Shown: piece by piece, positions 41,202-60,466 of the stretch
Layout: each line of letters opens with the position of its first letter
Position numbering within the stretch: position 1 is the first letter of the stretch
Source: a virus
Strand: one strand, 5' to 3'
Length of the DNA: 64,000 nucleotides
Virus record (IMG/VR): IMGVR_UViG_3300030099_006533
Position numbers and translations under genes: made by a program
Notes under the pieces: generated by a model
Database searches by the model: none
Told to the model about the DNA's origin: nothing
The model's input: only the letters and a program-made list of their open reading frames with translations

Positions 41202-41482
41202 TTGTATATACTGGAACTTTTACCAAGGCAGATGGCTCAGCCCGAACCATGCATTTTGCAAGGCTCACAGACCTGCCAGATTCGTTTCTGGCGGCTCGTG
41301 TGAAGGGCGGAGAGGTTACGGAGGCCCGCGCCGAAGCAAAGGCCAAGATGCTCGCTGAGGGCAAGGAAACAGTATGGGATCTGGAGGCCAACAACTTCCG
41401 GGTATTTAATTGGAACACAACCGTGGATGATGTATGTGAAGAGGAAGTAGAAGAATTAAACTTTTTTCAAAATAATGCTTGA
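41198..41482 (+). CDS. SH3-barrel (DUF2693/WYL_2-like) protein
   Basis: FTKADGSARTM...TVWDLEANNFRVFNW. Confidence 0.65.
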   Translation: MIVYTGTFTKADGSARTMHFARLTDLPDSFLAARVKGGEVTEARAEAKAKMLAEGKETVWDLEANNFRVFNWNTTVDDVCEEEVEELNFFQNNA

Positions 41483-41507
41483 CTTCTGTGAAGAAGGGTG
41501 TTATATT
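41479..41507 (+). promoter_or_regulatory. Sigma70-type early promoter with extended -10
   Basis: TTGACT-17 nt-TATATT with TG at -15/-14. Confidence 0.75.
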
Positions 41508-41516
41508 GATAAACAG

Positions 41517-41554
41517 AGGTTCGGGACATTTGCCGGGCCTACTATAGCCAAGTG
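41517..41554 (+). promoter_or_regulatory. Putative H-type RNA pseudoknot in the SSB mRNA leader
   Basis: Stem 1 AGGTTCGG (41517-24) with CCGGGCCT (41533-40); stem 2 CATTTG (41527-32) with CAAGTG (41549-54). Confidence 0.6.
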
Positions 41555-41571
41555 CAAAAGGAGAAAATGTA

Positions 41572-42318
41572 ATGGCAATTGACATGAAGGCAATGCGCGC
41601 CAAGCTAAGCGCACTCAAGAATGGTGGAGGCAACCGAAACGTCTTTTGGCGTCCGCAGGACGGCGATCAGGACATTCGAATTGTTTCACCGGAAGATGGA
41701 GATCCTTTCAAGGATTTCTATTTCCACTATAACGTAGGAAACAACAGTGGTTTCTTATGTCCCAAGAAGAACTTTGGAGACGACTGTGCTGTATGCAGCT
41801 TCGTTCGATCCCTTTATGATGAGGGAACCGAGGAGTCAATCAAGATGGCCAAGTCGCTCACCGCACGCCAGCGCTTCTTTTCCCCGGTCGTTGTCCGCGG
41901 CGAAGAGCGTGAGGGCGTTCGAATTTGGGGCTACGGTAAGACTGCTTATGAGACCCTACTCAACCTTGTACTGAACCCCGACTACGGTGATATCACCGAT
42001 CTTGAGGAAGGTACAGACCTCACACTTAATTACGGAAAGCCTGCAGGTGCCGCATACCCGCAGACCAAGATCCAACCTCGCCGTCGTACCAGTGCGCTAG
42101 TTGACTCTCCTGAGCAAGTAGCTGAGCTGATCGATAATATCCCAGAGTTTCAGTCGCTCTTTGACAAGAAGACTCCGGCAGAAGTCGAGACGCTCCTAGA
42201 CGCATTTCTTTCGGATGACGAAGATGCCGAGTCGCGCTCTAGTGAGTCCCATCGCTACGGAACCTCCGAGAAGGAAACTAGCACTGTAGATGAAGCTTTT
42301 GACCAGCTTCTAGCATAA
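41572..42318 (+). CDS. Single-stranded DNA-binding protein (T4 gp32-like)
   Basis: FWRP, His/Cys Zn ligands FHYN...LCP...DCAVC, RIWGYGK, YGDITD.EEGTD, acidic C-terminal tail. Confidence 0.85.
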   Translation: MAIDMKAMRAKLSALKNGGGNRNVFWRPQDGDQDIRIVSPEDGDPFKDFYFHYNVGNNSGFLCPKKNFGDDCAVCSFVRSLYDEGTEESIKMAKSLTARQRFFSPVVVRGEEREGVRIWGYGKTAYETLLNLVLNPDYGDITDLEEGTDLTLNYGKPAGAAYPQTKIQPRRRTSALVDSPEQVAELIDNIPEFQSLFDKKTPAEVETLLDAFLSDDEDAESRSSESHRYGTSEKETSTVDEAFDQLLA

Positions 42319-42401
42319 CGGCGCGCCCACAGGGAGGCATAGGGTTATCAGGTGCCTCACTCTTTACATAGTATGAACTTTGCCAGTTTTAGGAGATATT
42401 G

Positions 42402-44759: not shown

Positions 44760-44788
44760 TTGACTATATATCTAATGGATGTTATATT
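44760..44788 (+). promoter_or_regulatory. Sigma70-type early promoter with extended -10
   Basis: TTGACT-17 nt-TATATT, TGn present. Confidence 0.75.
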
Positions 44789-44810
44789 AATAACATAAGG
44801 AGAAAACATT

Positions 44811-45263
44811 ATGAAATCAAGCATCTTGCTAGCCTTTGTCGCCCTTATGAGTACGGGCTGTTTTTCAGCCCATGCTCATTATACGCCGCCAATCGTATAT
44901 GCACCCCCCGCTCAACCAGCAGTGGTGATTACGCCCAGTTCCGTGGCTATCCAGTGGCACTATGTGTATATTAACACGACTTGGGTCCGCCGTGCCGGTC
45001 CACCTCCACGCGGCTCGGTTTACCATGCACACCCTTCGCATCGCCACTCGGTGATTGTACACCGCTCCTCCAGTGGCCATCGCGCACCAGCATATCGCTC
45101 TAGTAGCCGGTCAACCAATCACAGGCATGTGGTTAGGCCTAGCAACTCTCAGCGCCGCTCCTCGGTTCGGACTAGCCAAAGTCGCAGTTCAACTAGGAAC
45201 TCACACAGCCGGGGCACAAACCAGACCAACAACAAGAACGGCCGTTCAACTCGTCGTCGCTAG
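44811..45263 (+). CDS. Putative lipoprotein with Pro-rich region and Arg/Ser/His-rich tail
   Basis: Signal peptide MKSSILLAFVALMSTG-C (lipobox-like); AAGGAG SD. Confidence 0.65.
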   Translation: MKSSILLAFVALMSTGCFSAHAHYTPPIVYAPPAQPAVVITPSSVAIQWHYVYINTTWVRRAGPPPRGSVYHAHPSHRHSVIVHRSSSGHRAPAYRSSSRSTNHRHVVRPSNSQRRSSVRTSQSRSSTRNSHSRGTNQTNNKNGRSTRRR

Positions 45264-45794: not shown

Positions 45795-45823
45795 TTGACT
45801 TGAGCCTCCTTATCTGTTATATT
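45795..45823 (+). promoter_or_regulatory. Sigma70-type early promoter with extended -10
   Basis: TTGACT-17 nt-TATATT, TGn present. Confidence 0.75.
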
Positions 45824-45844
45824 ATTAATAGTTAAGGAGGCTCA
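45801..45844. repeat. Perfect 12-bp inverted repeat enclosing the -10 box and pairing with the SD
   Basis: TGAGCCTCCTTA (45801-12) and TAAGGAGGCTCA (45833-44), 20-nt spacer. Confidence 0.85.
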
Positions 45845-45845
45845 A

Positions 45846-46268
45846 ATGTATTCAACTGACGACGGCACCATACATGAACTGCGCGGCCGACACAAGAGGT
45901 TTATCGAGGCCTCAGCACGCACAGCAGAAGACTCGGAATTTCCCAACTACCGACACGGTGCCCTTCTTGTTCGCGGTGGATCAATTATAAGTTCCGCTTT
46001 CAACAAGAGTAACCATATCAACTGGGCGAATAAGTTCCGCAACAAAGATTGTGGCCATGCAACCCACCACGCAGAAGTGGGAGCTGTCCTCGGAATGGCC
46101 CGCGAAAAAACGACAGGTGCAACGATGTATGTTGCCAGGATCGGTAAAACAGGAGAGCTTAAAATGTCAAAACCTTGCGAAATGTGCCAACAAGTGCTTG
46201 CACATGTGGGTGTAAAAAAGGTATACTATAGCATCGATGACGAACACATTGGTTGTATCAAACTGTAA
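45846..46268 (+). CDS. Zn-dependent cytidine/deoxycytidylate deaminase family protein
   Basis: HHAEVGA and SKPCEMC motifs. Confidence 0.85.
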   Translation: MYSTDDGTIHELRGRHKRFIEASARTAEDSEFPNYRHGALLVRGGSIISSAFNKSNHINWANKFRNKDCGHATHHAEVGAVLGMAREKTTGATMYVARIGKTGELKMSKPCEMCQQVLAHVGVKKVYYSIDDEHIGCIKL

Positions 46269-60155: not shown

Positions 60156-60184
60156 TTGACACAAAGCTAACAACCTGTTATATT
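60156..60184 (+). promoter_or_regulatory. Sigma70-type early promoter with extended -10
   Basis: TTGACA-17 nt-TATATT, TGn present. Confidence 0.75.
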
Positions 60185-60190
60185 ATATGA

Positions 60191-60466
60191 ATGGAATATA
60201 AGACAGGCGACATCGTCCTAGTAAAGAGCTTCGCAGGCCCAAACGTCCGCGTTCGCTTGGATGAGCGCCACGCCAACTTTGGTGATGGATGGGGTGCTGA
60301 AGGCTGGGACGCCACAATAATTTATAAAAAAGATATTGACAAACTACGCCAAAATGGTGTACCATATAAAAAGAGTGGAAAGCCGAATGTGTGGGTTTTC
60401 GACTTTGAAATAATCAAACTAATAAGGAGCAGCAGTGCTAAACCTAGACGACGACAAGAGAGCTAA
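60191..60466 (+). CDS. Small hypothetical protein (probably leaderless mRNA)
   Basis: 91 aa, SH3-like start YKTGDIVLVK; ATG at the predicted +1. Confidence 0.7.
   Translation: MEYKTGDIVLVKSFAGPNVRVRLDERHANFGDGWGAEGWDATIIYKKDIDKLRQNGVPYKKSGKPNVWVFDFEIIKLIRSSSAKPRRRQES

Follow-up and report, generated by a model that had tools for sequence, protein, structure and literature searches.

The window – the whole stretch of DNA analysed here, 64,000 nucleotides of the IMG/VR virus record IMGVR_UViG_3300030099_006533 – carries on its + strand a gene for a gp32-like ssDNA-binding protein (SSB; the gene is called ssb below), preceded by a promoter and a short leader with a conserved hairpin. From 5′ to 3′, the features of the locus are as follows:

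41479–41507, + strand: sigma-70-type promoter, with TTGACT at 41479–84, a 17-nt spacer containing TG (extended −10) and TATATT at 41502–07
41514–41516, + strand: predicted transcript start (C41514 or A41515) and the 5′ AG (41515–16), which pairs with C41542–U41543
41517–41540, + strand: hairpin HP1, identified by covariation, with an 8-bp stem (41517–24 with 41533–40) and the 8-nt loop GACAUUUG (41525–32)
41527–41532, + strand: CAUUUG, within the HP1 loop, the 5′ arm of a second stem (stem 2) in the original prediction for this locus; its pairing to 41549–54 is unsupported
41541–41548, + strand: 3′ flank of the hairpin, ACUAUAGC, consisting of the bulged A41541, C41542–U41543 paired to the AG, and a single-stranded NUA-GC
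41547–41555, + strand: GC-CAAGU-GC, a 2-bp remnant aligning with HP2, a second small hairpin of relatives, and containing the proposed 3′ arm of stem 2 (41549–54)
41556–41574, + strand: A-rich spacer, SD AAGGAG (41558–63), an upstream AUG-UAA and the ssb start codon AUG (41572–74)
41572–42318, + strand: gene for the gp32-like SSB (248 aa), identified with Pfam PF08804, PHROG 1192 and Foldseek

Profile and structural matches identify the product of the gene at 41572 as a gp32-like SSB, which bears out its annotation in the original prediction. Pfam PF08804 is matched with an E value of 2.3e-12 (47.8 bits, against a cut-off of 26.8) over profile positions 2–204 of 208, and PHROG 1192 with an E value of 1e-25. 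In a Foldseek search with an AlphaFold model of the protein – a model of low confidence (pLDDT 56), with TM scores of 0.3–0.4 to the gp32 structures – the best six matches are T4 and RB69 gp32, at probabilities of 0.97–1.00; searched with the same SSB by sequence and by profile, the PDB yielded no gp32. The N-terminus of the protein is basic and its C-terminus acidic, and the gene is flanked by a UvsX/RecA-like gene downstream and by pieces of a family-A polymerase upstream. The SSB of the window also has a gp32-style zinc-site pattern (H52, C63, C72 and C75; residues 52–75), as do those of loci L015, L017 and L020. In the SSBs of most relatives, the three Cys residues are replaced by Ser, Asp and Asp (FLSPKKNFGEDDPLD) and the His is retained; from these sequences, the zinc site appears to be absent from much of this SSB family.

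Relatives of the SSB number 527 in IMG/VR and 493 in a metagenome collection, and the nearest SSB in the cultured-phage collection, that of Microcystis phage Mel-JY01, is 33% identical. For the comparison of leaders, 80 loci were kept from each of IMG/VR and the metagenome collection, with SSB identities of 59–94%; nearly all of these 80 + 80 loci are marine. A search seeded by a divergent member of the SSB family supplied 80 further loci.

The leader reads ACAG, AGGUUCGG (41517–24), the loop GACAUUUG, CCGGGCCU (41533–40) and then ACUAUAGCCAAGUGC. The two arms are those that the original prediction had paired as stem 1, and they do form eight base pairs, two of them U-G. Covariation across ssb leaders, proposed there as a check, is found for all eight. 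Stem 1 is strongly supported, far beyond chance: in 56 distinct relatives, pairing is kept at 99.1%, with compensatory changes in 8 of the 8 pairs (140 cells), no shuffle out of 500 matches this value and no slid register comes close. An independent set gives the same picture at 97.1%, bringing the total to more than 110 distinct relatives, and when mutual information is computed over 125 distinct elements, ranks 1–8 are occupied by the eight stem-1 pairs and by nothing else. The 36-nt element folds at −13.3 kcal/mol (z = −2.8).

Across the family, the element has a common anatomy: (C/U)AG, a stem of 8 bp with hardly any constraint on its sequence, a loop of 8 nt of the form RANAUUNR, and then ACUNUA(GC). 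Among the 125 distinct elements, the stem sequence varies, A2, A4, U5 and U6 of the loop are nearly invariant, the 5′ AG is present in 124, and A, C, U, U and A of the 3′ flank stand at their positions in 113–125. RNAfold and RNAalifold agree on extending the helix by the pairs A41515–U41543 and G41516–C41542, with A41541 bulged. One sub-clade, in which the loop sequence is replaced, keeps the flanks AG...ACUAUACC. In L111 and L112 (355–386), the flanks are AC-[stem]-GCUUAUA in place of AG-[stem]-ACUNUA, a change that creates a C-G pair beside the stem; this is the sole compensatory-looking case seen in the closing helix.

The strand on which the structure forms can be read from the stem itself. 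On the + strand, G-U and U-G together fill about 10% of the stem cells and A-C is practically missing, which means that the folded strand is the + strand, that is, the sense of the ssb mRNA. The same asymmetry rules out a palindrome or cruciform acting at the level of DNA. An intrinsic terminator of the upstream gene is likewise ruled out, as the stem is not followed by a U-tract.

The position of the promoter suggests where this RNA begins. The original prediction had put +1 near 41514, in agreement with the start predicted here at C41514 or A41515, 7 nt past the −10 hexamer. In 75 of the 94 distinct leaders, the element is preceded by an equivalent promoter (9 or more of 12 matches), and in 59 of these 75 the distance from the end of the −10 hexamer to the A of the AG is 6–7 nt. 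Because this spacing puts the start at the A of the AG, the hairpin would constitute the very 5′ end of the message: the ssb mRNA would begin at the AG or one base before it, with its 5′ end fully paired. The remaining 19 of the 94 leaders have no recognisable promoter at the right distance and still keep the element. Contigs from four marine metatranscriptome runs span 41765–41931 and 42076–42361 only, i.e. they fall outside the leader. Three further promoters in the window share the hexamers and the TG (TTGAC(T/A)-17-TATATT), at 44760–44812, 45795–45848 and 60156–60193. Their leaders, with an SD no more than about 10 nt from the predicted start or, at 60191, an AUG nearly at the start, are very short, unstructured and without a hairpin; the hairpin is therefore no general property of transcripts from this phage.

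The original prediction had gone beyond the hairpin and proposed an H-type pseudoknot, in which the loop of stem 1 pairs with the downstream leader. Its letters are all there: CAUUUG (41527–32) and CAAGUG (41549–54) can form 6 bp with one U-G, and both the first loop, GA, and the 8-nt third loop are present in the sequence. The pairing itself is another matter. A lack of covariation in stem 2 had been named beforehand as grounds for rejecting the structure, and no covariation was found: in the window's own clade (12 distinct leaders), stem 2 is 79% paired with zero compensatory changes, and the pair A28–U53 is broken in 7 of the 12. Single uncompensated changes break the stem-2 core in L001, L005, L008 and L088, and L011 and L091 have an insertion. 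Nor is there a signal in the family as a whole. In a permutation test over 94 distinct leaders, the best native helix between loop and downstream region comes to 4.04 bp, against 4.10 ± 0.07 bp when the loops are swapped, and it is no better than with shuffled spacers either. When the downstream region is shuffled, a helix of at least 6 bp with this loop turns up by chance in 9–14% of trials, a rate explained by the U-rich loop and the A/G-rich spacer. The stem-2 complementarity is chance pairing.

Some observations do speak for stem 2: the complementarity itself, its unchanged presence in the closest pair of relatives, L087 and L002, and an energy that is not prohibitive. Its stacking amounts to −7.1 kcal/mol, compared with −13.3 kcal/mol for the hairpin, and a rough estimate from stacking and a standard textbook penalty places the pseudoknot close to, and no better than, the hairpin alone. 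On the other side, besides the uncompensated breaks, the lack of a family-wide signal and the chance level, stem 2 would compete both with the AG/CU closure, which is conserved, and with what remains of HP2, in whose loop its 3′ arm falls in the alignment, and in one sub-clade the loop sequence is wholly replaced while the flanks are retained. The permutation test, the breaks within the clade, the chance level and the mutual information together lead us to reject a pseudoknot or kissing-loop arrangement; that stems 1 and 2 nonetheless form an H-type pseudoknot in this phage and its nearest relatives, as a nucleation site for SSB, we regard as highly improbable.

Downstream of the hairpin, the leaders differ in length, with an A-rich stretch of 8–35 nt before the SD; their 3′ parts are 49% A. 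In 25 long leaders, a second small hairpin, HP2, has 3 bp with compensatory changes among GC, AU and CG. Its variants (GGG..CCC, GGC..GCC, GAC..GUC and AGC..GCU) are located 3 nt past ACUNUA, in loci including L019, L026, L031, L043 and L054 (alignment A4, columns 35–48), and the long leaders also have a conserved (A/C)UUAAC between HP2 and the SD. Judged by its position, the GC-CAAGU-GC of the window is probably homologous to HP2; the loop of this remnant takes in all of the variable positions of the window's clade, together with a 1-nt insertion.

The A-rich, unstructured stretch around the SD, another element of the original prediction, is recovered here, AAGGAG at 41558–63 being predicted as largely unpaired. 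As the SD region is essentially unpaired in the minimum-energy fold, with one isolated pair, sequestration of the SD was ruled out. At 41567–41574, the sequence AUGUAAUG places an upstream AUG, only 3 nt past the SD, and an immediate UAA (41567–72), the final A of which also opens the ssb start codon. The same overlapping AUG-UAA arrangement is seen in L002, L087 and L088; L001 has a non-overlapping AUG-UAA just before the start, and L005 and L010 have out-of-frame upstream AUGs.

How closely is the element tied to ssb? A covariance model of it (R1), used for searches of genomes and loci, gives one hit of 46.6 bits in the 64-kb window; the next, at 46190–46232, scores 12 bits inside the coding region of the 45846–46268 ORF and was judged to be a chance match. 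R1 has a single hit per record in four large relatives, including a complete genome of 203,859 bp with terminal repeats, and one weak partial hit (E 0.4) in a fifth record. It occurs once in 79 of the 80 metagenome loci, the 80th having no upstream DNA, and once in 72 of the 80 further loci, the other eight comprising six with a changed loop and the same flanks and two without upstream DNA; in both sets, the hits always lie 15–70 nt upstream of ssb. A pattern scan of IMG/VR, blind to the downstream gene, returned 39 matches, of which 33 are directly before an SSB homologue; of the rest, one has an ORF between the element and ssb and five are unable to form the stem. In the window and in the complete relative, the element is found in the leader of the gp32-family SSB gene and nowhere else. 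The hairpin is thus a conserved, single-copy leader, tied to ssb in hundreds of relatives.

In one locus, L195 (3542–4004), an inserted 128-aa ORF with no significant Pfam hit separates the hairpin and its SD from ssb, which has a new SD of its own, and the element heads a two-gene transcript. The arrangement recalls the insertion of segG next to T4 gene 32. The ssb leader of Mel-JY01, the closest cultured relative, does not have the element; some 35 nt ahead of the start codon, it has a different inverted repeat, rich in A/T, AATGAATT ... AATTCATT (L206, 1422–1476).

With Rfam 15, the whole window gave no match at gathering thresholds; freshwater-2 alone overlapped the element, with 14.9 bits (E 8.9) where its threshold is 49.9. 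The element appears to be a new and well-delimited RNA motif, absent from Rfam, and a candidate regulator of ssb. It may nonetheless have been glimpsed before: a survey published in 2023 lists, from IMG/VR, 12 candidate structured RNAs, all uncharacterised, that directly precede GP32 genes (PMC10690425). Like the element described here, those motifs come from marine Caudovirales of IMG/VR, are located no more than about 25 nt ahead of gp32 genes and have been assigned the same proposed role. The survey describes neither their anatomy nor any test of specificity or of a pseudoknot, and none of the 12 is in Rfam; our element may be one of them.

The closest known precedent for such a leader is found in T4 and RB69, where gp32 represses its own mRNA by nucleating on a 5′ structure and spreading over the unstructured region of the ribosome-binding site (PMC535899). 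In T4, the operator of gene 32 consists of a pseudoknot of about 28 nt and a lattice of more than 40 nt that has UUAAA/UAAA repeats and includes the ribosome-binding site (PMC535899; PMC3014915). The element described here shares with the T4/RB69 operator a structured 5′ leader element, a less structured A-rich stretch around the ribosome-binding site and its occurrence once per genome. In place of the T4 pseudoknot, however, it has a plain hairpin of 8 bp (10 bp with the closure) and invariant flanks, without sequence similarity, and only 31 nt separate the stem from the AUG in the window. UUAAA/UAAA does not occur in the window leader and is not enriched across the family; UUAAC is enriched across the family (24 of 94 leaders) and is not found in the window. 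In where it lies and in how it plausibly works, the element resembles the operator of T4 gene 32, without being a member of that operator family.

In form, the element is closer to two other leaders, those of T4 gene 43 and of T7 gene 10. The DNA polymerase of T4 binds a hairpin with an 8-nt loop in the leader of its own gene, 43, and represses translation. That hairpin, with a stem of 5 bp, lies directly against the SD or overlaps it; protein and sequence are both different from those considered here. The example of gene 43 shows that a simple hairpin operator suffices for autogenous repression. The phi10 leader of T7 (NC_001604), which serves a very highly expressed gene, has a matching layout: an 8-bp 5′-terminal hairpin, an A/U-rich spacer with UUAACUUUAA, AAGGAG and the AUG. 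It differs in that its loop is of 5 nt, that no specific protein partner is known for it and that its transcript is made by T7 RNA polymerase, whereas in the present element loop and flanks are conserved and the promoter is of the sigma-70 type.

What might the hairpin do? It is probably a gene-specific leader that serves as an SSB operator, as a 5′ stabiliser, or as both. The best reading – a tentative one – is that it lies at, or within 1–2 nt of, the 5′ end of the ssb mRNA and is a candidate translational operator for SSB. The hairpin, with its invariant base and 3′ flank, would be the specific recognition site of this operator. Not engaged with ssDNA, the phage's own cooperative, gp32-like SSB would nucleate on it and extend in the 3′ direction along the short A-rich spacer until both the SD and the AUG were covered. 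Full pairing of the 5′ terminus would at the same time shield a heavily used mRNA from 5′-end-dependent decay, so that a stabilising role is likely as an additional function. The case for a specific partner comes from the pattern of conservation, since the helix base and the 3′ flank are nearly invariant and the stem varies freely. As the site occurs once per genome, before the gene of a cooperative nucleic-acid-binding protein, the partner would most economically be the SSB itself, and the gp32-like nature of this protein, with its basic N-terminus and acidic C-terminus, makes it a plausible binder. Several points weigh against an SSB operator: the hallmarks of T4 are missing (the pseudoknot, the lattice of more than 40 nt and the UUAAA/UAAA repeats), the spacer of some relatives, at only 8 nt, is too short to need cooperative spreading, one sub-clade has lost the loop motif, and the promoter at the right distance is wanting in the 19 leaders mentioned above. 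In its broader form – an entire, abundant lineage of marine myovirus-like phages, with a T4-like virion and a DnaE replisome, controlling its SSB through a compact hairpin that is read sequence-specifically at the AG/ACUNUA base – we consider the proposal possible, with the doubts somewhat outweighing the support.

The nearly invariant flanks can also be turned against the SSB operator. Because an SSB is not expected to read specific bases, they could serve another trans-acting factor, either an endoribonuclease of host or phage that makes the mature 5′ end of ssb mRNA or a phage RNA-binding regulator, whose contacts would be with the invariant AG...ACUNUA at the helix base. Sites of specific RNA-binding proteins or nucleases typically combine invariant unpaired bases with an adjoining helix that is free to vary in sequence, and the element is retained in leaders reached only by read-through from an upstream ORF. 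In many members, the loop also fits the published preference of RNase E, R-A-U-U-W / RN-WUU. We nevertheless consider such a factor rather improbable, as a regulator with a single target in a 200-kb genome is less economical than autoregulation and no candidate partner gene was identified; a search for the RegA family (PF01818) in the records of two relatives detected none, a weak test, given that the control genomes gave no match either. The leader might, alternatively, simply support high expression without any feedback, the hairpin being only a 5′ stabiliser against RNases that depend on the 5′ end and ACUNUA plus the A-rich stretch a translational enhancer in front of a strong SD, as in T7 gene 10, with no binding of SSB. 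The leader of T4 gene 32 is a known mRNA stabiliser, the promoter spacing here would start the transcript at the A of the AG and leave its 5′ end fully base-paired, and the layout of phi10 is matched, with UUAACUUUAA-like spacers in some relatives and UUAAC in the 24 leaders noted above. A pure stabiliser, however, needs neither a conserved loop nor a conserved 3′ flank, and both are nearly invariant across SSBs that are 59–94% identical; moreover, the element is kept where a promoter at the right distance is missing, and it is unused by other genes in the window or in the complete relative. Expression without feedback therefore seems to us unlikely, though less so than the separate trans-acting factor.

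During phage replication, the level of SSB must track the amount of ssDNA. The textbook example of a protein sensing ssDNA by way of its own mRNA comes from gene 32 of T4; to our knowledge, this feedback between SSB and its mRNA has been tested only in T-even phages. An element of 36 nt that has clean covariation and occurs once per genome, before ssb, in uncultured marine phages by the hundred offers a well-defined and easily synthesised test of the feedback outside the T-even group. The record is also corrected as to where to look: the informative features are the hairpin, its invariant base and the 3′ flank, not a pseudoknot. If the candidate operator is real, autoregulation of SSB would be either ancient or repeatedly evolved in phages, with the pseudoknot and the UUAAA lattice dispensable, and the element would amount to a minimal 36-nt RNA tag for an ssDNA-binding protein.

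One locus stands out for its surroundings. L207 (CP070664.1, 2249675–2251236), whose SSB is 61% identical and whose hairpin scores 34.5 bits, lies within the 2.8-Mb chromosome of a metagenome-assembled genome (MAG) labelled 'candidate division WOR-3', where it may represent a prophage, a mis-binned phage contig or a clue to the host.
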